From contig CAZNOH010000001.1 of assembly GCA_964574655.1 (NCBI GenBank), positions 137,852-201,851 of the forward strand: 64,000 nucleotides of DNA, in the 5' to 3' direction. Under the pieces are notes generated by a model. The model was not told the DNA's origin, searched no databases, and worked only from the letters and a program-made list of their open reading frames with translations. Below, piece after piece: positions 5,245 through 54,837 of the stretch. The stretch comes from an uncultured Candidatus Saccharibacteria bacterium (GTDB taxonomy: Bacteria > Patescibacteriota > JABMPQ01 > JAQVVF01). The first letter of the stretch is position 1, and each line of letters starts with the position of its first letter. A program made the translations under genes and the position numbers.

Positions 5245-5328
5245 AATAATTTTTATCCGCCTTTGTTAAAGCTTCCACCTTCGCTAAAGCTTCGGTGGAC
5301 AAGTCGGCGGACGAGGGAGGTGATAAAT

Positions 5329-5463
5329 ATGATGGATTATAATATGATGAGTGGAGTTAATGGGGGAAATATGATGTTTTTTGCTTGGACTATATATATT
5401 TTGATTATTGTTTTAATTATTTTGGCAATTATAGCGTTGTGGAAATATATAAATAAAAAATAA
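5329..5463 (+). CDS. Small Met-rich membrane peptide (MMDYNMMSGVNGGNMMFF + one transmembrane helix) downstream of the Cu-ATPase; a possible Cu(I)-binding accessory peptide.
   Basis: The supplied ORF 5263..5463 is over-extended through a hairpin element. The real start is probably the ATG at 5329, preceded by the Shine-Dalgarno sequence GAGGGAGG (5313-5320). Confidence 0.35.
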   Translation: MMDYNMMSGVNGGNMMFFAWTIYILIIVLIILAIIALWKYINKK

Positions 5464-5467
5464 AAAT

Positions 5468-5722
5468 ATGATAAATTTAAAACATTTAAGTAAAGTTGTT
5501 GTTTTATGGATGAGCCTTGTTTATACTGTTTGTTACGCAGGAGTGGCAATTTATCCTCCGATTAGAGGATTATTTATGAAATATTCTTTGCATGCTGACA
5601 TGGTTTTTGTTTCTAATTTTTTCAGTATTGGTTATTTTATTTCTGGTTTGATTATTTGGAATGTGGTTGGATTAGCTGGAGCCGGGTTGTTTGCTGTGTT
5701 GTTTAATAAAATTAAAAGTTAG
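5468..5722 (+). CDS. Hypothetical small membrane protein (two or three transmembrane helices).
   Basis: 84-aa ORF with hydrophobic segments, 4 nt after the previous small ORF. Confidence 0.35.
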   Translation: MINLKHLSKVVVLWMSLVYTVCYAGVAIYPPIRGLFMKYSLHADMVFVSNFFSIGYFISGLIIWNVVGLAGAGLFAVLFNKIKS

Positions 5723-5789
5723 ATAAAGAGTAGAAAAAATTATTATCATTTTTTTTGACAAATTTTGTATTTCTGGTAAAATAAACTTG

Positions 5790-6052
5790 TAAATTTTAAA
5801 AACGTTTGAGTCTGGTTATCGCCAGATGATGTTGGTGAAAGAAAGCTTGGAAGTTTCTACCTTGCCTCTGCCTTCGTTACGCTTTGGCAGGCAGGCATGG
5901 CAAGGGTCGAACCTCCGCCATGGGCGGAGTAGAAGTTCTGAGTAATTAGATTCATTCGGGTAAGCCCGTTATAGCTTGAAATAAGTTACCGCCTTCACTC
6001 TTCACTTCGTTCAGAGCTTCGGCGGTTAAAAGAGGTGGTACCGCGAATTATT
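5790..6052 (+). ncRNA. Candidate structured non-coding RNA or hairpin-element cluster. It is a GC-rich stretch with three GC-rich hairpin elements (5868-5895, 5912-5929, 5988-6026) plus other stem-loops, and ends at an intrinsic terminator.
   Basis: There is no ORF. GC content is locally higher than its surroundings. Nested helices include CCTTGCC...GGCAAGG, CTCCGCC-atg-GGCGGAG and CGGG-taag-CCCG. It is preceded by a weak promoter-like TTGACA-N15-TAAAAT (5756-5782). I recognised no RNase P, SRP or tmRNA signature. Confidence 0.25.
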
Positions 6053-6081
6053 CGCCCTCTAAATTTTTTAGGGCGTTTTTT
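6053..6081 (+). terminator. Rho-independent terminator (CGCCCT-loop-AGGGCG + T6).
   Basis: Perfect 6-bp GC stem followed by TTTTTT. Confidence 0.6.
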
Positions 6082-6159
6082 AATGGTAATAAAATGATTA
6101 TTGATGTGCAGACTTTTATAATTAAATAAAAAAACCACGTTAGTGGTTAAGTAAGTGCA

Positions 6160-6393
6160 TTATTTCTTTTGAGGAATGATCTGGAATTGAGAAATGAAAA
6201 GGTTGGAAAAATAGAAACAGAACAAACCGTTGATTAAGCAAAAAATGGTTAAAACTTCCATAATAAGAATATTCGTAGAAAGGAAAATCATGACTATTGC
6301 ATATAGCACAATTGCGAAATGTATTAGAGAAGCTGTTAAAAGAAACATCGTTATTGCGACTATCCAAGGATGTTTTTTGAGTGTGTTTCTCAT
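6160..6393 (-). CDS. Hypothetical small membrane protein (77 aa, two transmembrane helices).
   Basis: Hydrophobic ORF in an otherwise empty region; coding status uncertain. Confidence 0.25.
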   Translation of the reverse strand: MRNTLKKHPWIVAITMFLLTASLIHFAIVLYAIVMIFLSTNILIMEVLTIFCLINGLFCFYFSNLFISQFQIIPQKK

Positions 6394-6549
6394 TTCTCGT
6401 CCCCTTTTTTGTTGAAAGAACTATATAAATTTTAGCATATTAATTAATAATTGTCAATAGAATCGCGAATATGCACAAATTTATCACAAATAGCACTAAT
6501 AGTCTATATGTGAAATTTGTGCAAGATTCGTGCAAATTCGAGAAATTTT

Positions 6550-9500
6550 ATGTTTAAAAAAGTAGATCCAAAACAAGATTTTATAAAATTAGAGCATGAT
6601 GTTCTTGGTTTTTGGAATGAGAACAGAATGTTTTATAAATTGCAGAATAAAAATCATGGCAAAGAGCCTTGGTCTTTTATTGATGGTCCAATTACAGCAA
6701 ATAATCCAATGGGAGTCCATCATGCGTGGGGCAGAACATTGAAAGATGTTTTTCAGCGTTATAAGGCGATGCAAGGATTTGATCAACGATGGCAAAATGG
6801 TTTTGATTGCCAAGGTCTTTGGGTTGAGGTTGAAGTTGAAAAAGATTTGGGATTTAATTCTAAAAAAGAAATTGAAAAATTCGGTTTGGATAATTTTTCT
6901 AAAGCTTGCAAAGAAAGAATTGAAAAATATTCCGAAATTCAGACTGAACAATCAAAAAGACTGGGACAGTGGATGGATTGGAGAAATTCTTATTATACAT
7001 ATACAGATGATAATATTGAGGCAATCTGGACTTTTTTAGAAAAATGCAAAAGAAATGGCTGGCTATACAAGGGATATTCAGTAATGCCTTGGTGTACAAG
7101 ATGCGGGACTGCTTTGTCTCAACATGAATTATCAGATGATGGCTGGAAAGAAGTTGTTCATCAGGCAGTTTATATTAAATTAAAAAGAAAAAGCGAAGAA
7201 GCTGAAATTAATGAATATTTCTTGGTTTGGACAACAACTCCTTGGACATTGCCAGCAAATGTTGCTTTGGCTGTAAATCCAAAAGTAAAATATGTCAGAG
7301 TAATGAAGGACGGCGAGACCTATATCTTAGCTAAGGCTTTAGTTTCGAAAGTTTTGGGTGAAGCAGAAATTGTAGAGGAAGTTGATGGAAAAAGTCTTTT
7401 GGGTCTGCATTATGAAGGACCTTTTGATGAATTGCCTGCACAAACAGGAGTAGATCACAAAGTAATTTCATGGGAAGATGTTTCTGATGCTGAAGGTACT
7501 GGCATTGTTCATATTGCGCCTGGTTGTGGTGAAGAAGATTATCAGCTTTCTAAAACTAATGATTTGAAAATTATTGCTCCAATTGATGAATTTGGCAACT
7601 ACGTTGATGGTTTCGACTGGTTGAACAAAAAAAATGTTCACGGAATTAAGAATGAGATTTTTTCTTCTTTGAAAGAAAAAGGTAATTTTTTGAAAATTGC
7701 TGATATTAAACATCGCTATCCATTTTGCTGGAGATGCAAAGAAGAATTAGTATTTAGAGCTGTTTCAGAATGGTTTATTGATGTTTCTGAAGTCAGAGAG
7801 CCAATGAGGAAGGCTGCAGAAAAAGTTGGTTGGTTGCCTGAATCAGTTGGCAAGAGAATGCAAGATTGGCTTGATAATATGGGAGATTGGGTAATTTCTC
7901 GAAAAAGATATTGGGGTTTGCCATTGCCTTTTTATGAATGTGAATGCGGTGAAGTAACTGCTGTAGAGTCACGAAAAGAGCTTTTAGAATTATCAAATCA
8001 ACAATCAACAAATTTGATATTAGCAAGGCATGGAAGAAGCGAAGGAAATGTTTTAGGAATTACTGATGGAAAAATGCCAGGAACAAATTTAGATTGGAAA
8101 GGCGAGGAAGAAGCCGATCAATTGGCGAAACAGATGAAAGAAAGAGGAGTTGATATTGTTTATACTTCACCTTTCTCTCGTTGTAAAAAAACAGCTGAAA
8201 AAGTGGCTAAATTATGCAATGCAGAATTAGTTGAAGATGAAAGGTTGAGAGAACAGGCTTTTGGTAATTGGAATGATAAGAAAGTTTTTGAAGTTGAAAA
8301 AGAACTTACTGATTTTTATGAGGAAAATGATGATAAAAAGGCTGGTGAGACAGGTGAAAGTATGAAAGAACTTTTTGCAAGATGTCAGGATTTTTATCAT
8401 GAAATTTTGAAAAAGCATAATGGCCAGACTGTTGTTGTAGTTACTCATGATGGAATTTTGGCAAATCTAGAAAAAGTAATTGTGAATAATAAAAAAGTTA
8501 GAAATGTTATGAAAGTTACAGCTCAAAATGCTAAAGCCCATGAAATTAATATTTTAGGGAATGGCCCCAGCCATGAAGGCGGGGCAAGCAAAATTATTCC
8601 TGAATTACATCGTCCTTGGATTGATGAACTAAAAATCATTTGTCCAAAATGTAAAAAGGAAGTATCGAGAATTAAGGATGTTGGTGATTGTTGGTTGGAT
8701 GCTGGAATCGTGCCTTTTTCAACATTAAAATATTTTAGCAATAAAGAATATTGGGCAAAATGGTTTCCTGCTGAATTTGTTTGTGAAATGCGTTCTCAAG
8801 TAAGATTGTGGTTCTATTCAATGCTTTTTATGGCTGTAACGTTGGAAGATGAGACGCCATATAAACAAGTGCTAGCTTATGAAGAAGTAAGAGATGAAAA
8901 AGGCAAGCCAATGCATAAGTCTTCTGGCAATGCGATCTGGTTTGATGAAGCAGCAGAAAAAATGGGAGCTGATGTGATGAGATGGATGTACTGTGTCCAA
9001 AATCCAGCTTACAACTTAAGATTTGGCTATAGATCCGCAGAAGCAATTAGACGCAAATTAATTTTGTTATGGAACGTTTATTCTTTCTTTGTGTTATATG
9101 CGAACATTGATAATTTTAAGCCTGTTGAAAATAATAAATTAGTACTGAACAATAAACTTGATCAGTGGATTATTTCAGCTTTGAATGCATTGATTGCTGA
9201 ATGCAATAAAGAAATGGATAGATTTAATGCTCAACGCGTAATGGAAAAATGCGAGAAGTTTTTGGATGATTTAGCAAATTGGTATGTAAGAAGATCAAGA
9301 AGGAGATTCTGGAAGAGTGAAAATGATCAGGATAAGAATCAAGCCTATCAAACGTTGTATACTGTTTTGACAAATTTTGTGAAATTAATTGCACCTGTTG
9401 TGCCATTTTTGTCTGAAGAAATGTATCAGAACTTGGAGCGTCAGAGCGTCGGAGCTTCGGAGATCGGAAGCGTCCACTTGTGTGATTATCCGAAGGCTGA

Positions 9501-10092
9501 TGTAAACTTGATTGATGAAAAGTTGAATATGGAGATGGATTTGGTGAGAACAATTGCGAAATTAGGTTTAGCTGCACGTGCAAAAGCACAAATGAAAGCA
9601 CGACAGCCGTTAGCTAAGTTGAAAGTTAAAAGTTTAAAGTTAAAAGTTACGGACGATTTAATTGCTATTTTAAAAGACGAATTAAATGTGAAAGTTATTG
9701 AATTTGTGGAAAAGATTGGTTTTGAGGTTGAAGAAAAGAAAAACAAGAAAAAGTATATTTCTAAAGAAAAAGGCTTTGAAGTTGAAGGTGATGGTAATGT
9801 TGTTATTGCTTTACAGACTGAATTAACTGAAGAACTAGAATTAGAAGGTATGGCTCGTGAAGTTGTCCGACAGATTCAATCAATGCGTAAAGAAGCTGAT
9901 TATCAGATTGCAGACCGTATTAAAGTTTGTTTTGAATTAGGTGAAAAAGGTAAAAAAGTTTGCCATCAGTTTGGTGATTATATTAAAAAAGAAACTTTGG
10001 CAACTGAATTAGAAGAAGGTAAAAAAGAAGTTGATTTGGGCAAAGAGGCGAAATTAGGCAAGGAAGAAGGATGGATTGGAGTGAAGAAATAG
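6550..10092 (+). CDS. ileS: Isoleucyl-tRNA synthetase (type 2, Thermus-like) with a histidine-phosphatase/phosphoglycerate-mutase-like domain of about 170 aa inserted between the two zinc-knuckle Cys pairs (CECG ... CPKC).
   Basis: Motifs seen are WTTTPWTLPAN (CP1 editing), WVISRKRYWGLPLPF, PMHKSSGN (the KMSKS equivalent), and a HIGH region GVHHAWG that aligns to T. thermophilus GLPHVGHA. The insert has LARHGRSEGN (the RHG catalytic motif) ... VVVTHDGIL (the second catalytic His). The likely start is the ATG at 6550 (MFKKVDPKQ); the supplied ORF begins at 6517. Confidence 0.9.
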   Translation: MFKKVDPKQDFIKLEHDVLGFWNENRMFYKLQNKNHGKEPWSFIDGPITANNPMGVHHAWGRTLKDVFQRYKAMQGFDQRWQNGFDCQGLWVEVEVEKDLGFNSKKEIEKFGLDNFSKACKERIEKYSEIQTEQSKRLGQWMDWRNSYYTYTDDNIEAIWTFLEKCKRNGWLYKGYSVMPWCTRCGTALSQHELSDDGWKEVVHQAVYIKLKRKSEEAEINEYFLVWTTTPWTLPANVALAVNPKVKYVRVMKDGETYILAKALVSKVLGEAEIVEEVDGKSLLGLHYEGPFDELPAQTGVDHKVISWEDVSDAEGTGIVHIAPGCGEEDYQLSKTNDLKIIAPIDEFGNYVDGFDWLNKKNVHGIKNEIFSSLKEKGNFLKIADIKHRYPFCWRCKEELVFRAVSEWFIDVSEVREPMRKAAEKVGWLPESVGKRMQDWLDNMGDWVISRKRYWGLPLPFYECECGEVTAVESRKELLELSNQQSTNLILARHGRSEGNVLGITDGKMPGTNLDWKGEEEADQLAKQMKERGVDIVYTSPFSRCKKTAEKVAKLCNAELVEDERLREQAFGNWNDKKVFEVEKELTDFYEENDDKKAGETGESMKELFARCQDFYHEILKKHNGQTVVVVTHDGILANLEKVIVNNKKVRNVMKVTAQNAKAHEINILGNGPSHEGGASKIIPELHRPWIDELKIICPKCKKEVSRIKDVGDCWLDAGIVPFSTLKYFSNKEYWAKWFPAEFVCEMRSQVRLWFYSMLFMAVTLEDETPYKQVLAYEEVRDEKGKPMHKSSGNAIWFDEAAEKMGADVMRWMYCVQNPAYNLRFGYRSAEAIRRKLILLWNVYSFFVLYANIDNFKPVENNKLVLNNKLDQWIISALNALIAECNKEMDRFNAQRVMEKCEKFLDDLANWYVRRSRRRFWKSENDQDKNQAYQTLYTVLTNFVKLIAPVVPFLSEEMYQNLERQSVGASEIGSVHLCDYPKADVNLIDEKLNMEMDLVRTIAKLGLAARAKAQMKARQPLAKLKVKSLKLKVTDDLIAILKDELNVKVIEFVEKIGFEVEEKKNKKKYISKEKGFEVEGDGNVVIALQTELTEELELEGMAREVVRQIQSMRKEADYQIADRIKVCFELGEKGKKVCHQFGDYIKKETLATELEEGKKEVDLGKEAKLGKEEGWIGVKK

Positions 10093-10120
10093 TTGAACAA
10101 ATAGTTTGAACAGAAAAAAG

Positions 10121-10145
10121 ATAGGCGAAAATGCCTATTTTTTTT
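10121..10145 (+). terminator. ileS intrinsic terminator (ATAGGC-gaaaat-GCCTAT + T7).
   Basis: Perfect 6-bp stem followed by a T-run. Confidence 0.65.
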
Positions 10146-10172
10146 GACATTTTGTGTTTAAAAAGGTAAAAT
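10144..10172 (+). promoter_or_regulatory. Canonical sigma70-type promoter: TTGACA, 17-nt spacer, TAAAAT. A strong Shine-Dalgarno sequence AGGAGGAG follows upstream of the 10259 ATG.
   Basis: I read it directly; spacer length counted as 17 nt. Confidence 0.55.
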
Positions 10173-10258
10173 ATTATTATAAAGGTATGGATTGTTCGTT
10201 AAAATTTAATTGACTATCCAATCGATTTCTTTTCATCCCCAAGAACCAGGAGGAGAAG

Positions 10259-12889: not shown

Positions 12890-12912
12890 GCGATTTTATA
12901 TCGCTTTTTTTA
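12889..12912 (+). terminator. Intrinsic terminator (AGCGAT-tttat-ATCGCT + T7).
   Basis: Perfect 6-bp stem followed by a T-run, immediately after the stop codon. Confidence 0.6.
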
Positions 12913-16451: not shown

Positions 16452-16507
16452 ACAAAGATCTGCCTTTGTTTCTCTGCGAGAGACTTTGGCGGACAAGGGA
16501 GGAGAGG

Positions 16508-18111: not shown

Positions 18112-19458
18112 ATGGAAAATTTAATGGATAAAATTGTATCGTTGGCAAAAAGAAGAGGATTTATTTTTCCGTCTTCAGAAATTTATGGCGGTTTTTCTTC
18201 TTGTTATGATTACGGTCCGATTGGAGTTGAATTAAAAAATAATATTAAGATGCAGTGGTGGAAAACTATGGTACATGATCGAGAGGATATAGTAGGTTTG
18301 GATGCCTCAATACTAATGTCACCAAAAGTTTGGTATGCATCTGGTCATTTGTCGGCTGGCTTTGCTGATCCAATGGCAGAATGCAAAAAATGCAACAAGA
18401 GATTTAGAGCTGATCATTTGAAAGAAGAAGCAATAACAAAATGTCCGGAGTGTGGTGGTGAATTGGGCGAGGTGAGAAAATTTAATCTAATGATGAAGAC
18501 TTTTGTTGGGCCATTGGAAAATGAATCAAGCATTGCTTACCTAAGAGCAGAAACTTGCCAAGGGATTTATGTTAATTTTAAAAATGTTTTGGATACCATG
18601 AGACCAAAAATTCCATTTGGTATCGCCCAGATTGGTAAGGCTTTTCGTAATGAAATTACGCCTGGAAATTTTACTTTTAGAATGCGTGAGTTTGAACAAA
18701 TGGAACAGCAGTTTTTTATTAAACCGGGAGAGAACGTAAAATATTTTGAAGAATGGAAAAAAATAAGAATGCAGTGGTATATTGATTTAGGTATAAGTCC
18801 GGAAAAGCTAAAATTTCATGAACATGCAAAAGAAGATTTAGCTCATTATGCTAAAGCTGCTTTTGATATTGAATATGATTTTCCTTTTGATAACAAAGAA
18901 TTAGAAGGCATTCATGATCGAGGGGATTGGGATCTTTCTAACCATGCAAAATCTTCTAAACAAGATCTATCTTATTTTGATACAAAAGAGAACAAAAAAT
19001 TTGTTCCAAATATAATAGAGACTTCAGCCGGTGCAGATCGAGCGGTATTGGCTTTTTTGGTTGATGCTTATTATGAAGAATCCGTTTTCGCTTCTAAAGG
19101 AGCTTCAACGGACAAAGAAAGTAAAGATAATATGAGAGTAGTGTTGAAATTTCATCCAAAAATTGCTCCAATTAAAATTGCTGTTTTGCCTTTGGCTAAA
19201 AATAAAACAGATATTACTGATTTGGCTAAGAAGATATTCAATGGTCTTAAGGCTAGATTTGTTTCAATGTATGATGAATCTGGAAGCATTGGAAAATTAT
19301 ATAGAAGGCAAGATGAAATCGGTACGCCATTTTGTGTGACAATTGATTTTGATAGCTTGGAAGATAAAAAAGTGACAATTAGAGATCGAGATACAATGGA
19401 ACAAGAAAGAGTGGAAATTGATGGATTGAAAGATTATTTTGAAAAGAAATTAGACTGA
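18112..19458 (+). CDS. glyQS: Glycyl-tRNA synthetase (class II, dimeric GlyQS type).
   Basis: 448 aa; N-terminal KRRGFIFPSSEIYGGFSSCYDYGPIGVELKNN plus the class II core and C-terminal anticodon-binding region. Confidence 0.9.
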   Translation: MENLMDKIVSLAKRRGFIFPSSEIYGGFSSCYDYGPIGVELKNNIKMQWWKTMVHDREDIVGLDASILMSPKVWYASGHLSAGFADPMAECKKCNKRFRADHLKEEAITKCPECGGELGEVRKFNLMMKTFVGPLENESSIAYLRAETCQGIYVNFKNVLDTMRPKIPFGIAQIGKAFRNEITPGNFTFRMREFEQMEQQFFIKPGENVKYFEEWKKIRMQWYIDLGISPEKLKFHEHAKEDLAHYAKAAFDIEYDFPFDNKELEGIHDRGDWDLSNHAKSSKQDLSYFDTKENKKFVPNIIETSAGADRAVLAFLVDAYYEESVFASKGASTDKESKDNMRVVLKFHPKIAPIKIAVLPLAKNKTDITDLAKKIFNGLKARFVSMYDESGSIGKLYRRQDEIGTPFCVTIDFDSLEDKKVTIRDRDTMEQERVEIDGLKDYFEKKLD

Positions 19459-19533
19459 GTTAGAAAGTTTAAAGTTATCCGCCTTCGTCCTGCTGGACTT
19501 TGGCGGACAGGTAAAGTTTATAAAGTATCTAAG

Positions 19534-19557: not shown

Positions 19558-19645
19558 TTAGACATTAATTATTATTTTTAGTATAATTTGTGTATATTCG
19601 CCTACGTCCTGTGGGACTTTGGCGGACAAAGTAATTTTAAAATAT

Positions 19646-23052: not shown

Positions 23053-23130
23053 TGTCATTCCGAGCGAAGCGAGGAATCCCGTGGTTTTTTGTTAAATTCA
23101 TGGGATCCCTCACTGCTGTTCGGGATGACA
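23053..23130. repeat. Long imperfect inverted repeat (about 28-nt arms) TGTCATTCCGAGCGAAGCGAGGAATCCC ... GGGATCCCTCACTGCTGTTCGGGATGACA, with a 21-nt spacer containing a T-run, between the AI-2E gene and rsmI.
   Basis: I read it directly; the arms are reverse complements with a few mismatches. Confidence 0.5.
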
Positions 23131-27663: not shown

Positions 27664-30600
27664 ATGAAATATGACTTTAAGAAAATTGAACGCAAGTGGC
27701 AGTTAAAATGGGATAAGGAAAAGCTTTATCAAGTTGATGTAAAAAATTCTGCAAAGCCTTTTTATAATTTGATGATGTTTCCATACCCATCAGCAGAAGG
27801 TTTGCATGTTGGAAATATGTATGCTTTTACTGGTTCTGATATTTATGGAAGGTATCAAAGATTAAAAGGTAATGATGTTTTTGAGCCAATTGGTTTGGAT
27901 GGTTTTGGTATTCATTCAGAAAATTTTGCAATTAAAAATAAGATTCATCCAGCAAAAATGGCTTTAAAAACGCAAAAAAGATTTTATGAACAATTGCACA
28001 TGATTGGAAATGCGTATGACTGGCCAAAAACTTTAGAAACTTATGATCCAGAATATTATAAATGGACGCAATGGCTATTTTTGCAAATGTACAAAAAAGG
28101 ATTGGCTTATAAAAAGAAGGCAGCGGTGAATTGGTGTCCTTCATGTATGACTGTTTTGTCTGATGAACAAGTTATAAAAAAGTCAAAAGTCAAAAGTCAA
28201 AAGTCAAAAGTTCAAGTAAAAAATCAAAAGGAATCGAACGAACAAATCGATGTTTGCGAACGTTGTGGGACAGAAGTTATCAAGAAAGAAATGAGCCAAT
28301 GGTTTTTTAAGATTACTGATTATGCTGAAAAATTATTAAAGAATATTGATAAAATAGATTGGACAGAAAAGACAAAATTAGCGCAAAAAAATTGGATTGG
28401 AAGAAGCGAAGGCATAGAAATTAATTATCTAATAAACAGTAAATGCAATTTTGTTTTGCTACATGGCTATACTGGTAGTTCGAAGGATGATTTTTTTCCT
28501 TGGCTAAAAGAAAAATTAGAAAAGCAAGGATGTGACGTTTTTGCGCCAGATTTGCCGAATACAAAAGATCCAAATGAAGATGAGCAGGTTGATTTTGTTT
28601 TAAAAAATGCAAAGTTTGATGAAAATACTATTTTGCTAGGTCATTCATTAGGTGCTGTTGTTGCAATGAAAGTTATGGAAAAATTAGATAATAAAATTGC
28701 GGGTTTGGTTTTGGTTGGTGGTTTTGTCGAGCCAGAATTTAAAGATCATTCAAGATCTTTTACTGATAAATTCAATTGGAAATTTGATTTCGTGAAGATA
28801 AAAAATAGTGCAGATATCATAAATGTTATTAGTGATATAAATGATCATATCATTCCTTTAGAACAAGGTAAGTTATTGAGAGATAAATTGAGTGCAAATT
28901 TGACTGAAACTGTTGCTGAAAAAAATCATTTCAACAATGTCGAAGCCAAAAGTGTTTGGGAAAGTATCTTTCCTGAAATTAAAGTTTTTACAACTAGACC
29001 TGATACAAATTTTGGAGCAACATTTGTTGTTTTGACGCCCGAAAATAAAATCTTAAGCTCTATAACAACTAGTGATCATAAAAGAGAAGTTGATGATTAT
29101 GTTAAAAAATCATTAGAAAAAGGTGAACAAAACAGAATTGAAGAGGGACGAGAAAAAACAGGAGTTTCTACTGGAGCTTATTGTATTAATAGTTTGACAG
29201 GAAAGAAAATGCCGATTTGGGTGTCTGATTTTGTTTTGGGAAATGTAGGTACCGGTGCAGTGGTTGGAGTGCCAGGTCATGATATCAGAGATTTTGAGTT
29301 TGCTAAGAAATTTGAATTGCCAATTATTCGAGTTGTTGTTGGCAAAGATAATGATGTTTCTGAAATTATAGAAGCAAAACAAGTGCAAGAAGAAGAGGGA
29401 AAAATGATTAATTCTGATTTTTTGAATGGTTTAGATATTCATGACGCGACTAAAAAAATTATGGATTATTTGGAAGAGAAAGGCTGGGGTAAAAAAGTTG
29501 TGAATTACAAATTACGTGATTGGTGTATTTCTAGACAAAGATTTTGGGGACCGCCAATTCCAATTGTTTATTGTGATAATTGCAAAAAAAACATTGAAGA
29601 AAAATCTTTTGAATTAAGATTTCGTGATAAAAATAGTTTTGCTGATTTAAAAAGTGGTTTAAAGACAGTTGAATCAAGAGCTTTAAATCCAGAAGAAAAA
29701 GACAGATATTTTGGAAATTTGAAAATTGGTGATTATATTAAGGCTTTGTCAAAGATAACCGGAGAAAAATTATATTTTGAAATTACGAAGATTTATAATT
29801 TTAAAAATCTTAATGAATTATTTGAAGAAAAAGAATTATTGACAAAGATATTGCCGAACAAAACAATTAATTCAGTAAATGATTTAGAAAAATTATATGT
29901 TTTTAATGATGAATATTTGGCAAAAATAAATGAGAATGGTTTAATTGCTTGGGAAATTAAAAATGTTGAGCCTGGAGTTTTAGCTGTTCCTGAAAAAGAT
30001 TTGCCAGTGATGTTGCCAAAGACTGATGATTACTTGCCTGACGGAACTGATCGATCTCCTCTTGCTCGAAATTCCGAATTTGTTAATACAAAATGTCCAA
30101 AGTGTGGAGGAGATGCAAAAAGAGAAACTGATGTGTCAGATACATTTTTGGATTCATCTTGGTATTTTTTGAGATATCCAAGTGTTGATATAAAAGATCA
30201 GCCTTTTGATAAAGATATTACAAAAAAATGGTTGCCAGTTGATATGTATATTGGCGGACATGAACATGCTGTACTTCATTTGCTTTATACAAGATTTGTA
30301 ACAATGGTTTTGCATGATTTAGGGATGATAGATTTTGAAGAGCCTTTTAAAAAATTCAGAGCGCATGGTTTGATTATTAAAGATGGTGCAAAGATGTCAA
30401 AATCAAAAGGCAATGTTGTAAATCCAGATATATATATTGAGAGATATGGTGCTGATGTATTGAGAACATATTTAATGTTTATTGGGCCGTTGAAGCAAGG
30501 TGGTGATTTTCGAGATGAGGGAGTGGTTGGTATAGAAAGGTTTTTTGGTCGCTTATATTATTTAGTTAACGAATTTATAAAGAGTCCCAGCCTAAAGGCT

Positions 30601-31116
30601 GGGCTACAAGATGGATTTGTAATTGAGAGAAATAAACTGATTAAAAAGGCAACTCATGATATTGAGGAATTGGATTATAATACGATCATTGCTTCTTTGA
30701 TGGAATTTTTGAATTTGTTAGATAAAAATAAAGAGAAAGTTGCAAAAATTGATTTGGAAACGTTAATTATTATTTTGTCTTCTTTTGCGCCTCATTTTTG
30801 TGAAGAAATGTGGTCCACCTTCGCCTCAGTTCCTTCGGCTACGGCGGATAAAAGAGATTTGGATAAATATAAGCAATCAGTTTTTAGGCAGAAATGGCCG
30901 GAATTTGATGAAAGTAAAATGAAAGAAGAAAAAGTAAAATTAATTATTCAGGTAAATGGCAAAGTGAGAGATTTCGTGGAAGTCGAGATCGATATCTCTG
31001 AAAGTAAGGCGAGTGAATTAGTACAAAAACGAGAAAAAATTATGAAATTTATTGTTGGAAAAAAGATCAAGAAAATGATATTTGTAAAAGGCAGATTGAT
31101 AAATATCGTGTTATAA
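27664..31116 (+). CDS. leuS: Leucyl-tRNA synthetase with two inserted domains. An RBBP9/YdeN-type serine hydrolase (about 190 aa; LLHGYTGSS...GHSLG...DHI) sits at the CP1 entry between NWIGRSEG and TTRPDT. An ASCH-like domain (about 130 aa; GLKTVESR, i.e. GxKxxExR) sits at the leucyl-specific-domain position. The HIGH motif reads HVGN.
   Basis: PYPSAEGLHVGN, NWIGRSEGIEINY...VFTTRPDTNFGATFVVL, KMSKSKGN. It is 1150 aa against about 860 for E. coli LeuRS. There is a heptanucleotide repeat (AAAAGTC)x4 at 28186-28220. GC-rich hairpin elements lie in frame at 30586-30603 and 30814-30854. Confidence 0.9.
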   Translation: MKYDFKKIERKWQLKWDKEKLYQVDVKNSAKPFYNLMMFPYPSAEGLHVGNMYAFTGSDIYGRYQRLKGNDVFEPIGLDGFGIHSENFAIKNKIHPAKMALKTQKRFYEQLHMIGNAYDWPKTLETYDPEYYKWTQWLFLQMYKKGLAYKKKAAVNWCPSCMTVLSDEQVIKKSKVKSQKSKVQVKNQKESNEQIDVCERCGTEVIKKEMSQWFFKITDYAEKLLKNIDKIDWTEKTKLAQKNWIGRSEGIEINYLINSKCNFVLLHGYTGSSKDDFFPWLKEKLEKQGCDVFAPDLPNTKDPNEDEQVDFVLKNAKFDENTILLGHSLGAVVAMKVMEKLDNKIAGLVLVGGFVEPEFKDHSRSFTDKFNWKFDFVKIKNSADIINVISDINDHIIPLEQGKLLRDKLSANLTETVAEKNHFNNVEAKSVWESIFPEIKVFTTRPDTNFGATFVVLTPENKILSSITTSDHKREVDDYVKKSLEKGEQNRIEEGREKTGVSTGAYCINSLTGKKMPIWVSDFVLGNVGTGAVVGVPGHDIRDFEFAKKFELPIIRVVVGKDNDVSEIIEAKQVQEEEGKMINSDFLNGLDIHDATKKIMDYLEEKGWGKKVVNYKLRDWCISRQRFWGPPIPIVYCDNCKKNIEEKSFELRFRDKNSFADLKSGLKTVESRALNPEEKDRYFGNLKIGDYIKALSKITGEKLYFEITKIYNFKNLNELFEEKELLTKILPNKTINSVNDLEKLYVFNDEYLAKINENGLIAWEIKNVEPGVLAVPEKDLPVMLPKTDDYLPDGTDRSPLARNSEFVNTKCPKCGGDAKRETDVSDTFLDSSWYFLRYPSVDIKDQPFDKDITKKWLPVDMYIGGHEHAVLHLLYTRFVTMVLHDLGMIDFEEPFKKFRAHGLIIKDGAKMSKSKGNVVNPDIYIERYGADVLRTYLMFIGPLKQGGDFRDEGVVGIERFFGRLYYLVNEFIKSPSLKAGLQDGFVIERNKLIKKATHDIEELDYNTIIASLMEFLNLLDKNKEKVAKIDLETLIIILSSFAPHFCEEMWSTFASVPSATADKRDLDKYKQSVFRQKWPEFDESKMKEEKVKLIIQVNGKVRDFVEVEIDISESKASELVQKREKIMKFIVGKKIKKMIFVKGRLINIVL

Positions 31117-31196
31117 CACACTAATGTGACGCTAATAACACTAATTAACACTAATAAAAAATCCGCCTTCGTTCTGCTGAACTTCGGCGGACAAAG

Positions 31197-32848: not shown

Positions 32849-32966
32849 AGTTCTTAAAGCCTGCCTGCCGGTAGGCAGGTTATAAAGTAAAAAAGATATT
32901 AAGATATTGTACTTTGAAAATTGAACCTGTCTGAGTTTGGACAGGCAAGAAAAGGAGGAGACGGGA

Positions 32967-33491
32967 ATGGCTGAAAAAAGGGAAGGAATGATTTTTGTAT
33001 GCAAGGCAATGCCTTTGTATTTCATAATTGTTGCCGACTATATTAGTCGTATTTTCACGTATGAAAGGCAAAGGTATACTGGATTTTTACAAGAATCAAA
33101 AGATTTGTTGTGGCATTTTAATCTGAAGAGTGGTTTGATGTACGTGTCGGATGAAAAGATGTATGAATTTTATCTTCCTGATACTGAAGTTGGAAAAGCG
33201 GCAAGAAGATTGTTTGAAATGATTCTTCTAGAATTACAAGTACAACTAGGCTTGATGATCAGTCAGGTTCAGAGTGTCCAGACAGAAAGAAAAACGGGAA
33301 TGGCTGAAAAAGATCATCAGCGTAAAAGTGAATGTCGAAGTGCTAAACCGAGAATTGGGAAGTGCAAATGGGTAAAAGATGGGAATGCTTGTGATTCTTG
33401 TCCTTATGATAGTACTTGTCTTAGGCTTTCATACTGTAGAGATGTGGGAAATAGTGATGATTGCAAGTCTTGTCCTTTGGAAAGTTTATAA
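32967..33491 (+). CDS. Hypothetical protein with a Cys-rich C-terminus (CKWVKDGNACDSCPYDSTCLRLSYCRDVGNSDDCKSCP), preceded by the Shine-Dalgarno sequence AAAAGGAGGAGACGGGAATG.
   Basis: The supplied ORF 32937 was trimmed to the ATG that follows the strong Shine-Dalgarno site. Confidence 0.45.
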   Translation: MAEKREGMIFVCKAMPLYFIIVADYISRIFTYERQRYTGFLQESKDLLWHFNLKSGLMYVSDEKMYEFYLPDTEVGKAARRLFEMILLELQVQLGLMISQVQSVQTERKTGMAEKDHQRKSECRSAKPRIGKCKWVKDGNACDSCPYDSTCLRLSYCRDVGNSDDCKSCPLESL

Positions 33492-33540
33492 GGTTTATGT
33501 TTGAGTTTTGACCTGAACAGGGAAAAGGAGGAGACGAGAA

Positions 33541-33806
33541 TGGTTAAAAGAGATCCGATTGTAATTGAATTCCATTATACTTTAGCACATTCTTTGTTGG
33601 AAATTGTTAAGGAAACTTTGAGCAACGATAGTCCATTAATTGGCAGGCTTGTTGTAGCGATTGGGAATAATGCAAGAGGAAAGGGTGAGATAGCTTGTGT
33701 TAAGTTTTCCAATGACAGGGAAGGTAGAAAAGAATTGGAAGATTTTAAAAAAGTTTCTCAGCTTTTGGAGGAAAGAGTTAAGGAGTTCTTTGGATATTTG
33801 GCCTAG
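33541..33806 (+). CDS. Hypothetical protein (88 aa), preceded by the near-identical Shine-Dalgarno context AAAAGGAGGAGACGAGAATG.
   Basis: The supplied ORF 33501 was trimmed. A terminator CCAGTT-tttata-AACTGG + T7 follows at 33807-33832. Confidence 0.4.
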
Positions 33807-33959
33807 CCAGTTTTTATAACTGGTTTTTTTATGTCTTGAAGTTGTCTTTAAAATATATTAAAATAATATAACTAGTAGTTTAATTTTATTACTTTTCCAC
33901 CCTACGTCTGCCTGCCGGTAGGCAGGGGTGGTCACCCGAAGGGTGATAACTTTTAACTT

Positions 33960-41560: not shown

Positions 41561-41620
41561 ATATTCGGAAATTAAGATATTAAATATTATCCACCTTCGC
41601 TAAAGCTTCGGTGGACAAAG

Positions 41621-41650
41621 AAAAACGGCTCGATGAGTCGTTTTGTTATT
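41621..41650 (+). terminator. glyA intrinsic terminator (AAAAACGGCTC-gat-GAGTCGTTTTGTT), preceded by the hairpin element at 41591-41620.
   Basis: 7-bp stem with one G-U pair, followed by a T-run. Confidence 0.6.
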
Positions 41651-41747
41651 TTAGATTTAAGTTAGAATATAATGCCGAAGGAGGGAGTCGCCCTGCCATG
41701 AAGGCAGGGTTGCTCATTTCGTTCGCAAAACCTAATTTTTTTGATCA

Positions 41748-41830
41748 TGCCGCGGGAGGGAGTTGAACCCTCATGAGCCGAAGCTCACACGATTTTGAGT
41801 CGTGATTGTATGCCATTCCAACACCGCGGC
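41748..41830 (-). tRNA. tRNA-Leu (anticodon CAA), class II with a long variable arm (TGAGC-TTCG-GCTCA); no encoded CCA.
   Basis: I folded it by hand. The acceptor is GCCGCGG/CCGCGGC + A, the D-arm is TTG...CAA, the anticodon stem is CACGA/TCGTG with loop CTCAAAA, and the T-arm is GAGGG-TTCAACT-CCCTC. Confidence 0.8.
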
Positions 41831-48112: not shown

Positions 48113-48205
48113 AAGTTTAAAAAGTAAAAAGTTAAAATTAAAAAGTAAAAAATATTTTTAATTGCATAATTTAAACAATAACGTTTTTTAAATTATTGTC
48201 AAATT

Positions 48206-49297: not shown

Positions 49298-49416
49298 ATA
49301 GTTTACAAAATCGATAATTTACTTTACAGTAACAAAAAAGATGATTATAGACAAACTGTTGACAAAAATTAGAAAATAAATTATACTGCTGAGTAATTAA
49401 ATTTAATTTTATTTTT

Positions 49417-50148
49417 ATGATTAGTGAACAAAATCAAGAAGAAAAGAAACAAAAAGGAGAAAAGATGTTGAAGATTGTTTTTGGAATTATCTTTGGTATT
49501 TTAGTTTTAGGTTTAGGTGGATATTTGGTTGCTTTCTTAGTTTCAGATAATCTTGGATTCAAGAACTATATTAGTTTAAAGAAAGATAGAAAAGCTGATG
49601 AAGTTAAGACAAATGAGCAAAAAGAAAATACTAACGAAAATACAAACATAGTTAATGAAAATGTAAATAGAGATGAAAATCAAGATATTATTGCTGATTG
49701 GTTGGAATTTGATGTCCAAGGAATTTCATTCTTGTATCCTGAAGTATTGGAAAAGAGTAGAAAAGTAAGGCAGATAGATATTCCTGGTGAAAGAAAATAT
49801 GATTTTTATGATTTTGGAGTATTTGGAATTGGTATTATCAATAACGATGCAAATGAATCTTTGAAAGATGTAATAACTTATAATTTTGATCAAGAAAATT
49901 TATTAAAATTAGAAGATGTGAAGATTGGCAAAGATCGAAAAATAAATGCTTTGAAAGTTACAGTTACGGATGAATTTGATGAAAAGTATGGTATTTTAGG
50001 GATTAAATATTTCTTTGCTGTTAACAATAGAGTATTTTCGATTGTTCCTGGTCAAGCTTTTCCAACTAAAGAGGCAGAAGATTATTATACAAAAAATAAC
50101 ATCAAGAATATTGATGCTTTAATTGAGACTATCCAAGTTAAAAACTAA
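49417..50148 (+). CDS. Hypothetical membrane-anchored protein (N-terminal transmembrane helix, Asn/Glu-rich linker, C-terminal globular domain).
   Basis: ORF only. Confidence 0.4.
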   Translation: MISEQNQEEKKQKGEKMLKIVFGIIFGILVLGLGGYLVAFLVSDNLGFKNYISLKKDRKADEVKTNEQKENTNENTNIVNENVNRDENQDIIADWLEFDVQGISFLYPEVLEKSRKVRQIDIPGERKYDFYDFGVFGIGIINNDANESLKDVITYNFDQENLLKLEDVKIGKDRKINALKVTVTDEFDEKYGILGIKYFFAVNNRVFSIVPGQAFPTKEAEDYYTKNNIKNIDALIETIQVKN

Positions 50149-53100: not shown

Positions 53101-53354
53101 TTCAATGATTTTTCTTCAATTGGCTTAAATATTTTGATTATGATATTTTTATTTTGCCAATTTCTGAGATTTGAATATGTTGATAGGGCAGTATCATGGT
53201 TTTTTACGAAATAAAAAATCGGCTGATCCAATTTTTCTGGGGGTATCAGCTTGGTAATAATGAATGGCTTTGCTTGTTCACAAATGCCGGTAAGAATCGT
53301 CTTTTTGCTTCGCAGGGGTTCAAGATTTTGAACCCCTGCCTGTTGTTCTAGCAT
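50145..53354 (-). CDS. mfd: Transcription-repair coupling factor Mfd.
   Basis: UvrB-homology N-terminus plus the superfamily 2 helicase core GDVGFGKTEIALRAA, DEEQRFGV and the TRG motif. Confidence 0.9.
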   Translation of the reverse strand: MLEQQAGVQNLEPLRSKKTILTGICEQAKPFIITKLIPPEKLDQPIFYFVKNHDTALSTYSNLRNWQNKNIIIKIFKPIEEKSLNLENEKIRQSFIKKQNFLSDISENKPGFYIIPIEHINSSCPKISNFEKNFSTASKNENIDPNDLSQQFASQGYERETNAVAKGLFSKKGGLIEIFPINKKYPVRLEFIGNKIENIQIFDPKNKKALKSINNILIPPIKTNDSNGKLSDYLVLPKQALMIINDPESLKESIDPFSYKPYQHFEKSISEFTQIIIQSFPEEKTIDLDFLSISNYANNLLALKKELQKYQDFKIIIFTQDEKAIKKIFANLDINFSKIIFEKKEYSKNISGFKSNQHKLLLLTDNEIIQERTENKKSINEAFISELKINDFLVHEDHGICLFKGTTKKIIDNNKKEYLILEYANNDKLFLPVEYSEKITKYIGQSHPKINHLHTASWLELKSKIKKKTEIIAKDLLKIYANREKSLGFAFSTDTEKQKELEDSFPYQETPDQLKVIAEVKIDMEKKKLKKPMDRLICGDVGFGKTEIALRAAFKATQDKKQVAILCPTTILAKQHFDNFKNRLENFDLKIAVISRFQSKIQQQDILKKLSLGQINIVIGTHRLLSDDIKFKDLGLLILDEEQRFGVKHKETIKKLKANIDILALSATPIPRTLNLSLSGLRDISIINTPPPGRQSVANFIKPYSEEIIMNAFKKELDRNGQIYFLHNKVQTIQATTQKIKNLLKKYNKPVSVAFAHGQMPENNLEKIMSEFYDKKIDILVASSIIENGLDVPNVNTIIIDNAVNFGLADLYQLKGRVGRSTKQAYAYFLYKSTELKEKARRRLEALLEAKELGSGFQLALRDLEIRGAGNILGKEQSGAVTTIGLNLYCRLLNQAIQNLKSGQEKTIEEKISPTLDLPLSAYLPEKIFPNFEKRLKLYQQIANIENINELQEYEQNLINNIRDHISIIRDGIREKSYIDNLFYILELKIIAQKAKIKFIKTKQINQPDGKNYNRFVINFQRQTNYQKAYELIKKNPQWDIEDTEIKINQSDLGPDWKNSLKQSLQFFA

Positions 53355-53484
53355 GGGCAGATGATAACATTTTTTTTGATGTAAGGCAAGGTTTCAAGCA
53401 AACAAAAAAATGTTTTTTGTTTCAATTTTGTTATTAGTAAATCTTGACAATATTTTTTGCTTTGATAAGATGTTATGAAAATGT

Positions 53485-53600
53485 TTTTTTCATTTTTCTG
53501 TCTGCGAGTAGCCAAAGCAAAACTATCCCTCCTTAAGTTTTGTGAGTAGCTATAAATTAAGCTTTTGCTTAGGCTCGCAGACAGGAAAATGGGAAGAATA
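53485..53600 (+). ncRNA. Candidate small structured RNA: a long imperfect hairpin of about 100 nt (outer stem TTTTCTGTCTGCGAG / CTCGCAGACAGGAAAA with nested CCAAAGCAAAA / TTTTGCTTAGG and CAAAACT / AGTTTTG), with CCCTCC in an internal loop. It is downstream of a promoter-like TTGACA-N17-TAAGAT (53446-53474) and upstream of a second promoter (TTGACT-N17-TATGTT, 53636-53664) for the 53704 gene.
   Basis: I found the inverted-repeat structure by hand; there is no ORF. Confidence 0.3.
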
Positions 53601-53703
53601 TGAAAAAAATCACCTAATGTGGTTTTTTATTTAGGCTTGACTTTTTTTAATTATCTGTTATGTTGGTGTTAGTACTTTCCACGAGGAGAAAAGGAGGAGA
53701 GAG

Positions 53704-54246
53704 ATGAGTCTAGCTTTGGACATGGGAACAACTCCAATTGGTTTGGAAGCAAAAACTCGTTTTTTATCTTTTGGATTTTTACAACTTGGTGATTATACGA
53801 TTAATTTGGAAGATTGTATGATTTTGATTCAGTTTGTACTTCGGCAAGCTTTTTTGCTAGAGACAAAATTGACATGGAGGTTTTGGAAGTATTTCCGAAA
53901 TCTTAGGATTTGGAAAGGATATTCTGAGACAATGCGTTGTAAAAAAATTTGTACTCATAGAATTCATTCAGAGGGTAGTTCTTTATGTCAGCTTGTAGGT
54001 GCTGTTGAAGATTGGTCCGTATCTGTCGAAAGCGGTGTTTTGCAGAGAGAGCTTGTTCCTAGGAAGATTTCAGTAGCAATTTCTTTTGGAGGAATAAGAA
54101 TTGGTGATTATAATCTTTCTAATGCTGATTTTTTGTGCTTAATGGATTATGTTTTGACAAATGAGAATTTGGCTAAGAGTGATCTTAGAAGAAGATTCAT
54201 GAAGAATGTAAGGCGTTGGAAGTGTTTTGAAAGATATGTTCGTTGA
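53704..54246 (+). CDS. Hypothetical protein built from an internal tandem duplication of an about 50-aa unit (SFGxxxxGDYxxxxxDxxxLxxxVL...RRF...R.WK.F), preceded by the Shine-Dalgarno sequence AAAAGGAGGAGAGAG.
   Basis: The two repeat units are visible in the translation. A terminator follows at 54245-54275 (GAGACTGA-ttgctt-GTCAGTCT + T7). Confidence 0.45.
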   Translation: MSLALDMGTTPIGLEAKTRFLSFGFLQLGDYTINLEDCMILIQFVLRQAFLLETKLTWRFWKYFRNLRIWKGYSETMRCKKICTHRIHSEGSSLCQLVGAVEDWSVSVESGVLQRELVPRKISVAISFGGIRIGDYNLSNADFLCLMDYVLTNENLAKSDLRRRFMKNVRRWKCFERYVR

Positions 54247-54291
54247 GACTGATTGCTTGTCAGTCTTTTTTTTATTTTGTTTTAAATTTAC

Positions 54292-54837
54292 CTACGTCCT
54301 GCGGGATTCTGGCGGACAAACAATTTCTTTTATGACTTGATCAATGCTTTTGTTGATAATGTCTTGTTCTTCTTTTGAGAAATTTCCAAGAACATAATTG
54401 GCAGTATCTGCAATTTGTTCTTTTGGCAAATTCAAAATGCCAATTCGGAAGCGATTAATTTCATTTGTATTTAAGCTTTGAATAATTGATTGCATGCCAT
54501 TGTGTCCACCAGCGGATTGGCCAGAAGTTCTAATTTCGCCAAGTTGCAAATCAATGTCGTCGTAAATTATTGTTAAATCTTTTTTAGGATCAATTTTGTA
54601 AAACGAAATAAGGGCTTGAACTGCAAGGCCTGACTTATTCATGAAAGTTTGCGGTTTGGCAAATATCGTTTTTTCGTTGTTAATATTTGTTTGGCTAATT
54701 TCAGCGTTAAATTTTTTTTCCAAACTAAAATTTAAATTTAGCTTTTTTGTTAAAGCATCGAGTGTCATAAAGCCGACATTGTGGCGAGTGTTTCGATATT
54801 TCTCGCCAGGATTGCCTAGTCCGATTATAATTTTCAT
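54292..54837 (-). CDS. pth: Peptidyl-tRNA hydrolase.
   Basis: MKIIIGLGNPGEKYRNTRHNVGF. The last about 9 codons are encoded by a GC-rich hairpin element (54290-54321). Confidence 0.85.
   Translation of the reverse strand: MKIIIGLGNPGEKYRNTRHNVGFMTLDALTKKLNLNFSLEKKFNAEISQTNINNEKTIFAKPQTFMNKSGLAVQALISFYKIDPKKDLTIIYDDIDLQLGEIRTSGQSAGGHNGMQSIIQSLNTNEINRFRIGILNLPKEQIADTANYVLGNFSKEEQDIINKSIDQVIKEIVCPPESRRT

Follow-up and report, generated by a model that had tools for sequence, protein, structure and literature searches.

A family of short hairpin repeats in a Saccharibacteria genome, probably copies of a small mobile palindromic DNA element

Rickettsia palindromic elements (RPEs) are inserted in frame in protein genes of a small-genome bacterium, where they are tolerated as extra peptide segments. 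Among repetitive extragenic palindromes (REPs), the CGTC/TGTC-tagged superfamily, which includes Neisseria dRS3 and Rickettsia RPE-4 and RPE-6, spans multiple phyla, occurs within genes too and has no known dedicated transposase (Di Nocera et al. 2013, PMC3733652). This superfamily is the closest described kind to the repeats analyzed here, a family of GC-rich hairpins (family 1) found in a 64,000-nucleotide stretch (the window) of contig CAZNOH010000001.1 from an uncultured Candidatus Saccharibacteria bacterium; the window has a G+C content of 33% and a gene content of the Patescibacteria type. An earlier note, made from the sequence of the window, had listed nine such hairpins and taken their conserved tail as a sign of a functional RNA or protein-binding motif. 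We propose instead, with a probability of about three in four, that the hairpins have arisen as copies of a small palindromic mobile DNA element, non-autonomous and 30-42 nt in length, which is of the same kind as REPs and RPEs. This reading is based on their defined boundaries, the occurrence of filled and empty sites, nesting, in-frame copies within genes, patchy multi-copy spread and the decay of old copies.

Repeated and recent insertion in one Patescibacteria lineage

The nine hairpins are all present where they had been placed, and their number far exceeds chance. Indeed, the 3' half of the element, TTYGGYGGACAA, has nine matches in the window when up to one mismatch is allowed (1.03 expected; 0 of 100 shuffles reach nine), and a strict two-arm pattern has three (0.00 expected). 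A covariance model, R1, whose rows come mostly from copies in other phyla with three rows of this lineage added, was run with filters off and gave 11 matches with E<1, all on the plus strand (11/11), with starts at 5274, 41590, 31162, 19478, 16459, 30814, 19081, 5867, 3211, 19597 and 5989. Since the count is above chance level and a positional bias is present, the family stands; only the role proposed for it changes. The possibility that we are dealing with ordinary GC-rich hairpins of terminators or attenuators that resemble one another by chance can be dismissed almost completely: several copies do lie near terminators, and two are part of a putative T-box leader, in which hairpins come as no surprise, but these counts refute it, the R1 E values go down to 1e-10, a 29-mer recurs unchanged 36 kb away, none of the copies carries a T-run of its own, and positions left free by the search pattern are conserved across more than 120 foreign loci (see below).

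Read from 5' to 3', family 1 consists of T-CCRCC, three nucleotides (TTC), a G-closed hairpin ending in C, three nucleotides (TTY), GGYGG-A and CAAG. When clean copies are folded with ViennaRNA, T-CCRCC pairs with GGYGG-A to form a 6-bp foot, surmounted by a symmetric 3x3 pyrimidine internal loop (TTC/TTY, sometimes TAC/TTT); the distal hairpin always has a G-C closing pair and is otherwise free in sequence and length, and the tail, CAAG or CAAAG, is left unpaired. Clean copies have fold z-scores of -2.6 to -3.3. The hairpins are a genuine repeat family with a conserved foot, internal loop and single-stranded tail, which shares with REPs a small size (30-42 nt), the ability to form hairpins, a high copy number and the form of a short imperfect palindrome.

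The copies that lie between genes are all on the plus strand. At 5256-5316, an outer copy, TCCGCCTTTGTTAAAGCT(T) / (T)CGGCGGACGAG, is split into two halves (5256-5273 and 5304-5316) by a complete inner copy (5274-5303; R1 51.5 bits, E 2.6e-10), as recognized in a computed nested fold; what had been listed as one copy at 5257-5310 is actually two. This nested pair is located directly 5' of a GGGAGG Shine-Dalgarno site and a small open reading frame (ORF) at 5330. The inner copy recurs 36 kb away at 41590-41619 (R1 49 bits, E 9.7e-10), between the glyA stop codon and the terminator at 41622-41644. The identity of two 29-mers noticed earlier holds for 5274-5302 and 41590-41618, which both read TCCACC...GGTGGACAA, but the next base differs (G versus A). 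Two further copies also lie between a stop codon and a terminator, at 19478-19511 after glyQS (R1 33.4 bits, E 5.6e-6) and at 31162-31195 after leuS, where the terminator is bidirectional (R1 36.7 bits, E 8.9e-7), so that three copies sit just 5' of terminators. The copy at 16459-16497 (R1 22.3 bits, E 0.0024; fold -17.4 kcal/mol, z -3.2) occupies the spacer between tgt and a gene for an FAD protein and abuts a Shine-Dalgarno site. Finally, the copy at 19597-19630 (R1 15 bits, E 0.14) begins about 10 nt 3' of a promoter (TAGACA-17-TATAAT at 19559-19587, 11/12 consensus matches), which places it at the predicted 5' end of the mRNA of a GGDEF gene. The adjacency to Shine-Dalgarno sites and terminators is thus as originally described.

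One listed member is degenerate: the sequence at 54290-54321 (plus strand) is present, but it has no 5' arm and no family fold, is not detected by R1 and overlaps the pth stop codon. Its reverse complement encodes the last residues of pth and the stop codon (CPPESRRT*); the Pfam Pept_tRNA_hydro match in pth ends at residue 171/181.

The location of these copies would fit a cis-acting regulatory or protein-binding RNA, in which the hairpin and ACAAAG would form a selected mRNA element that marks 5' untranslated regions and 3' ends (for example a stabilizer, a processing site or a target for an RNA-binding protein). The folds are stable and carry a conserved tail, one copy coincides with a predicted transcription start while others immediately precede Shine-Dalgarno sites or stand before terminators, and the 16459 copy contains G-U pairs. 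E. coli REPs are known to affect the stability of 3' untranslated regions (bioRxiv 10.64898/2026.03.23.713779). We nevertheless regard this explanation as improbable, for reasons that become apparent when orthologous sites are compared.

Close relatives were reached via a GlyRS cluster mate and GlyA homologues (89-91% identical), which led to syntenic contigs: relative A (L216 and L218), relative B (L220), relative C (L222) and a short fourth contig, L224. In the glyQS-GGDEF spacer, both copies are present in the window and neither in relative A, whose terminator, TATAAT promoter and start codon align with those of the window. The site after glyA is filled in the window and empty in A, C and L224, and the site after leuS is filled in the window and in A and empty in B and C. 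Conversely, a family-1 site upstream of glmS is empty in the window and in A and holds a complete copy in B and a half-decayed one in C, which keeps only GGCGGACAAG. The latter junction is exact: GGTTTTTTTA^TGTCTTGAAG in the empty form versus GGTTTTTTTA(TCGCC...GGCGGACAAG)TGTCTTGAAG in the filled form, i.e. a clean 36-nt insertion. There is no target-site duplication at this junction (A-runs blur the other ones), and a fixed target motif was sought and not found, the CTT...TCGG flanks observed in GC-rich genomes resulting largely from nesting in other hairpins.

Copies also reside inside coding sequences, which the earlier listing of intergenic hairpins had overlooked. In the GlyRS gene, the copy at 19081-19116 (plus strand; foot TCCGTT/AACGGA; R1 21 bits, E 0.005) is a 36-nt in-frame insertion encoding FASKGASTDKES, and the empty site of relative A shows up as an exact 12-codon gap in both the protein and the DNA alignment. 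In the LeuRS gene, the copy at 30814-30852 (plus strand; R1 21.5 bits, E 0.0038) is a 42-nt in-frame insertion (W-STFASVPSATADK...) missing in relatives A, B and C. A probable variant at 3211-3240 (plus strand; foot CCCTCC/GGAGGG; R1 17.4 bits, E 0.037) encodes PSFASATEGRQ in the N-terminal region of a P-type ATPase. The IleRS gene contains a 24-nt in-frame insertion (8563-8585, encoding PSHEGGAS; fold -15.8 kcal/mol) made of a hairpin of another type, family 2 (see below), which corresponds to an 8-residue gap in the protein alignment with A.

Altogether, filled and empty orthologous pairs with defined boundaries were obtained for seven family-1 sites and for the family-2 site in IleRS. At the site orthologous to the 16459 copy, relative A (L216 8400-8510) also has a copy, with a different inner hairpin, together with two degenerate tandem copies. 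R1 finds 11 copies in the 64-kb window versus 3 in 85 kb of the relatives' sequence. These comparisons show a rapid turnover of the family, by gain and by loss, and an expansion in the present genome; insertion has been repeated and recent in this Patescibacteria lineage.

This pattern is difficult to reconcile with a selected RNA. Most copies are missing at orthologous sites of relatives that share about 90% protein identity, while the surrounding signals (terminator, promoter, start codon) are kept; the flanking genes share no gene class, and in-frame copies stand within coding sequences. One copy, it is true, keeps its position before the same gene in relative A. As to the tail, a recognition site in single-stranded DNA would account for its conservation no less well than an RNA motif would.

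Spread across phyla and a possible type of mobilizer

The family had been presented as one of this lineage. By contrast, when a collection of species-representative genomes was scanned with the strict pattern, the same ~30-mer, including positions that the pattern leaves free, was found across many phyla, at no fewer than 120 loci (at least 120; record titles are given for 80). The hosts among the matches listed comprise Bradyrhizobium and other Alphaproteobacteria, Bacteroidota (Niastella, Chitinophaga, Rikenellaceae), Acidobacteriota, Verrucomicrobiota, Planctomycetota, Elusimicrobia and Armatimonadetes and, on the Patescibacteria side, Saccharibacteria, Andersenbacteria, Kaiserbacteria, Roizmanbacteria and Parcubacteria; viral contigs contributed 14 further loci, and 7.3 Gb of plasmids no full-length match. 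These matches are not due to chance, because the free positions are conserved: in 129 unique matches, T precedes the element (position -1) in 116 and G follows ACAA in 110, and the commonest centre, CCAAGGC, occurs 33 times. Free centres of 10 nt or more almost always form a perfect hairpin, with a mean stem of 3.76 bp versus 0.66 in shuffles, and the R1 alignment contains 29 double-change cells indicative of covariation versus 5.9 in shuffles.

Where the family is present, it is present in several copies: 27 extra copies were found in 733 kb of loci already holding one, as against two in 1.02 Mb of control loci, where a single locus holds both. Among metagenome loci anchored on GlyRS, the best relatives are only ~62% identical and contain no copies; these loci served as a negative control. 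Nesting is found in other genomes as well. In L038, L080, L085, L087, L108 and L121, a copy is inserted in another one at a fixed point, GCTT^CGG, which is precisely the point of nesting in the 5256-5316 pair of the window. Copies also nest in the loops of other palindromes, including a CGTC-type repeat of Bradyrhizobium which has the same layout as family 1 (ATTGC-TTC-GC..GC-TC-GCAAT-GACG). Some copies adjoin tRNA genes: in two Patescibacteria loci (L010 7760-7880 and L033 1546-1664), the 5' arm TCCGCC coincides with the last bases of a tRNA-Ser gene, and in a Rikenellaceae locus (L015 791-896) the tail directly adjoins the first nucleotide of tRNA-Ala, which is paired there with a tRNA-Ile gene (Ile-Ala tRNA pair).

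In other phyla, copies were found inside the genes of ArgRS, a Cu-ATPase, a GT1 glycosyltransferase, LeuRS (two copies), a PMT_2 glycosyltransferase and an ABC ATPase, in both orientations and in several reading frames. The Pfam domain match spans the insert in all these proteins except LeuRS, where the two copies are at the edges of domain matches. The LeuRS in question, from Roizmanbacteria (L045 6820-7998), has two in-frame copies, ASAKASAGK and SAFAKASADK, and an ORF of another, AT-rich genome (L100 6815-7630) has one, PRLRKRFGGQA, near its N-terminus (GILGYGEVG). Aminoacyl-tRNA synthetases recur as hosts. Consistently stop-free variants are common: 61% of the distinct ones have no stop codon in any of the six frames (19% of shuffles). 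Lengths divisible by three are found for 60/87 distinct variants and, when 30-mers are left aside, for 24/51 (p 0.05), which is suggestive at most. The tendency toward multiples of three, combined with six largely stop-free frames, would enable the element to colonize essential genes. A possible, though rather doubtful, extension of our proposal is that family 1 is a pan-bacterial, previously uncatalogued 'coding-tolerant' hairpin transposon, with a near-invariant foot, 3x3 loop and CAAG, moved by something other than the GTAG-specific RAYTs; even in a 0.65-Mb genome, the mobilizer might then be an HUH enzyme that has escaped recognition, a helper that itself moves horizontally or one of the housekeeping activities of replication or repair.

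Two further arguments against a selected RNA are that, in other genomes, copies occur on both strands with respect to the genes that flank or host them, and that mid-stem mismatches are A.C in 15 cases versus G.T in 3, which favors pairing on the opposite strand. A transcribed copy would still fold into a stable RNA hairpin, which may incidentally stabilize or occlude mRNA ends: the 19597 copy would cap the 5' end of the GGDEF-gene mRNA, and the 3' hairpins before terminators are likewise candidates. By analogy with the E. coli REPs, such effects on mRNA stability are plausible, but our data do not require them, and they would probably be a side effect rather than the reason for the family's existence.

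With respect to replication, the window is strongly asymmetrical: GC skew is positive throughout (+0.02 to +0.36, overall ~0.25; G 13,241 versus C 7,970), even in the 44-56 kb block with minus-strand genes. The strand that carries all 11 R1 copies is the G-rich one, which serves as the lagging-strand template. In other genomes, the bias toward the G-rich strand is weak (70 versus 52, Wilcoxon p 0.026).

How, then, might a mobile element of this kind be moved? The foot, the internal loop and the single-stranded tail could together be what a strand-specific enzyme recognizes in single-stranded DNA; this might be an HUH/Y1 enzyme of the IS200/RAYT type operating on the lagging-strand template. 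Y1 HUH transposases read IS200/IS605 ends and REPs by structure and strand, and the orientation of the subterminal hairpins of IS200/IS605 is tied to the lagging-strand template (PMC6006769). The orientation on the G-rich strand, the weak bias in foreign genomes and insertion without duplication are all consistent with such an enzyme. If the element is mobile, we would tentatively put this mobilizer at slightly short of even odds; the step is an inference, because no candidate enzyme was found in the window or near the clustered copies inspected and most genes are co-oriented with replication.

Several points weigh against the mobile-element interpretation. Within the window, the orientation of the copies cannot be separated from the direction of transcription, most genes being co-oriented with replication. 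No transposase or HUH gene was recognized among 20 window proteins (Pfam) or among the ORFs near clustered copies in nine foreign loci. REPs mobilized by RAYTs usually have a 5' GTAG/GTGG foot (CnGA in class 3), often form inverted pairs and vary from species to species, whereas family 1 has a 3' CAAG tail (a CYYG foot on the other strand), a uniform orientation here and near-invariance across phyla. In two genomes, the copy 5' of the FAD-protein gene is found at the same place against the Shine-Dalgarno site, which a selected role would also fit. Finally, parts of the element pre-exist in empty sites (TCCGT in GlyRS, ACAAA at glyA) or, in L010 and L033, as the TCCGCC of the tRNA-Ser 3' end, which hints at microhomology and copy-choice rather than cut-and-paste.

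This last point brings in a rival explanation, namely spread without a dedicated enzyme, by template switching (copy-choice) during replication from existing copies onto microhomologies, with quasi-palindrome correction keeping the arms complementary. The empty GlyRS site of relative A already holds TCCGT(T), of which the 3' arm of the filled site, AACGGA, is the exact complement; the empty glyA sites already hold ACAAAAAA where the tail ACAAAG now sits; and the identity of the 5' arm with the tRNA-Ser 3' end, the absence of target duplication and the uniform orientation on the strand that is single-stranded during replication would all fit. However, the empty sites upstream of glmS and in LeuRS have no pre-existing homology to the element, microhomologies of 4-6 nt may be a coincidence in an AT-rich genome, and copy-choice alone leaves the near-invariant cross-phylum consensus and the sharp T...CAAG boundaries unexplained. 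We consider copy-choice unlikely, keep it as a rival for the mode of spread and retain the mobile palindrome of the REP/RPE kind as our working interpretation.

Accompanying hairpins and neighboring features

Hairpins of the form CC(C)WGCC had been described as a related subfamily. They turned out to be a separate, co-occurring family, family 2, defined as CCTGCCTGCCGG(T/C)AGGCAGG (at 32859 and 33908), with looser relatives at 8563, 30586 and 41689. The hairpin CCTGCCTGCCGGTAGGCAGG lies in an intergenic spacer at 32859-32880. At 33897-33945, upstream of glmS, a composite consists of a family-2 hairpin between CCACC/GGTGG arms, followed by TCACCCGAAGGGTGA (fold -30.7 kcal/mol); it is missing in relative A. 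The hairpin CCCAGCC-TAAA-GGCTGGG (30586-30603; sequence and fold) lies within a length-variable loop of LeuRS, and CCCTGCC-ATGA-AGGCAGGG (41689-41712), of the family-2 type, adjoins a duplicated tRNA-Leu 3'-end fragment. The palindrome CCTGCCTGCCGGTAGGCAGG is also found in L018, L057 and L104, and a variant, CCTGCCTGACCGGCAGG, in L087. Among the loci examined, family 2 occurs solely in genomes that also carry family 1, and not in control loci; in L018, one family-2 copy is nested inside a family-1 copy. In addition, the window contains a REP-like palindrome of the CGTC type, GTCATTCCGAGCGAAGCGAGGAATCC, at 23058-23085, in the spacer 5' of the gene at 23089, with the layout of the Bradyrhizobium and Neisseria CGTC repeats. 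Several kinds of GC-rich mini-palindrome thus coexist in this genome.

Two lineage-specific ORFs, 32937-33491 and 33501-33806, are bracketed by two copies of CCTGCCTGCCGGTAGGCAGG (32859-33930); they have no Pfam match and no recognizable domain. This block is missing in relatives B and C and different in A. The region after glyA is also variable and is a rearrangement hot spot: it holds the hairpin element and a tRNA-Leu gene in the window, whereas in relative A glyA is directly followed by a minus-strand ORF of the LAGLIDADG type (L218 11294-11881), and in B the region is rearranged and has a DUF218 gene. Beside the family-2 hairpin, a 19-nt fragment (41675-41693) is identical to the 3' end of tRNA-Leu(CAA) of relative C and L224; the intact tRNA-Leu gene of the window (41748-41830), ~55 nt away, has a different acceptor stem. 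This fragment looks like a remnant of a rearrangement or of an integration at a tRNA gene.

Two of the hairpins listed earlier as members, 5868-5895 and 5988-6026, are indeed present, but they lie inside a putative T-box leader and match R1 weakly. This leader (5711-6062) is a sub-threshold match to RF00230 (49.4 bits for a gathering score of 93, E 8e-8, model positions 1-219) and contains AGGUGGUACCGCG. The first hairpin (5867-5895, plus strand; foot CTGCC/GGCAG, loops TTC/TTT; R1 18.5 bits, E 0.02) is nested in a larger hairpin, within a 136-nt insertion of the leader. The second (5989-6025, plus strand; ACCGCC-TTC-...-CTTC-GGCGGT, without CAAG tail; R1 12.6 bits, E 0.53) corresponds to stem III in the Rfam T-box alignment, an unusually long stem III with a 22-nt insertion. 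The leader is followed by its terminator and then by an apparent antisense small ORF, ileS beginning only ~490 nt further. Relative A has no T-box 5' of ileS (L216 1300-1830).

The synthetase genes display other irregularities. IleRS (6550-10092) holds a whole inserted His_Phos_1 domain, as does that of relative A, and a GC-rich, internally repetitive stretch of its gene (9429-9477, GGAGCGTCAGAGCGTCGGAGCTTCGGAGATCGGAAGCGTCC) could be a further inserted element. The inserted domain of LeuRS (27664-31116) is a serine-hydrolase/abhydrolase in the window and in A and a NUDIX domain in B, and C has none (first gene of L218, L220 and L222).

Comparison with known systems

In line with the earlier view of the family as undescribed, no Rfam family covers the copies: no match was found on any of them at the gathering score, in the window at E<=5 or, for one copy, at E<=10, the only Rfam matches being a tRNA-Leu and the weak T-box. 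A full-text literature search with the element, the encoded peptides and the family-2 palindrome returned unrelated primer matches only, and RepRanger and the HUH survey do not mention the element. A CsrA site, an attC or dif site, a tRNA minihelix and a self-cleaving ribozyme were considered and dropped, since the defining core of each is missing from the sequence.

If our interpretation is correct, the hairpins should not be annotated as riboswitch-like regulators, and the element explains odd Ala/Ser/Lys-rich inserts (SAFAKASADK, LRRT, FGGQ and similar ones) in conserved proteins as well as many spurious small ORFs. The interest of the family lies in its breadth and invariance, in its recent activity in a 0.65-Mb genome and in its in-frame landing in essential genes. 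It represents a recent repeat expansion in an ultra-small Patescibacteria genome, such genomes being usually regarded as repeat-poor. A near-identical REP-like family found in many phyla, without a known transposase, sharpens the question raised by Di Nocera et al. (2013) as to what mobilizes palindromic repeats other than the GTAG ones, and its foot, internal loop and tail offer a well-defined substrate for finding the mobilizer.

Family 1 resembles the CGTC/TGTC-tagged superfamily in several respects. It is ~30 nt long, reads C-T-TGTC-CGCC on the other strand, has in its minimal form arms of ~9 nt around a 4-5 nt centre, and is likewise found in several phyla, with copies in genes and no known transposase. 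On the reverse strand, the sequence before CGCC is TGTC, CGTC or CTGTC, which recalls the unpaired tag at one end of the superfamily's repeats, although two bases of this tag, the final ones, are engaged in pairing with the opposite end of the element. In the four CGTC families, however, the first two positions of an 8-9 bp stem are A-T, the tail is CCA and most copies form head-to-head dimers, no internal loop being mentioned (PMC3733652), whereas family 1 has a CCGCC/GGCGG foot, a conserved 3x3 loop, a variable distal hairpin, no CCA tail and, in the window, co-oriented single copies. Since it lacks the stem, tail and dimer features that define these families, family 1 is set apart from them; its sequence is also absent from PMC3733652 and its supplements.

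Like the REPs and REPINs of the REP/RAYT system, family 1 is a short imperfect palindrome in which an irregularity separates the basal from the distal stem and a conserved tetranucleotide at the foot is single-stranded; it has a high copy number, and its copies are mostly intergenic, near gene 3' ends, and occasionally in frame within genes. The tetranucleotide is not GTAG or GTGG: CAAG corresponds to CTTG, CTCG or CCTG on the other strand. Nor do inverted doublets (REPINs) form in the window, where all copies are on one strand; one head-to-head pair was found, in L037. No RAYT gene flanked by the repeats (a REPtron) was recognized in the window or in the clusters inspected. Ordinarily, a REP evolves together with its RAYT, and its sequence varies from one species to another, whereas family 1 is nearly invariant across phyla, and tnpA-REP genes have been reported mainly in larger genomes, the present host having ~0.65 Mb.

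IS200/IS605 elements combine an imperfect hairpin with a nearby single-stranded cleavage tetranucleotide and insert without target duplication. Their hairpins flank tnpA (often with tnpB), whereas the family-1 hairpin stands alone. In yeast mitochondria, GC clusters and translational-bypass elements ('byps') are GC-rich mobile hairpins of an AT-rich genome that also occur in coding sequences; they belong to another domain of life and are unrelated in sequence, and since the family-1 inserts keep the reading frame, no bypassing need be invoked. The hairpins within genes resemble the RPEs in that they, too, are palindromes inserted in frame in protein genes (GlyRS, LeuRS and foreign genes for family 1, IleRS for family 2). 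Compared by description, RPE-1 is 100-150 bp long and confined to Rickettsia, whereas family 1 measures 30-42 nt and is found in many phyla.

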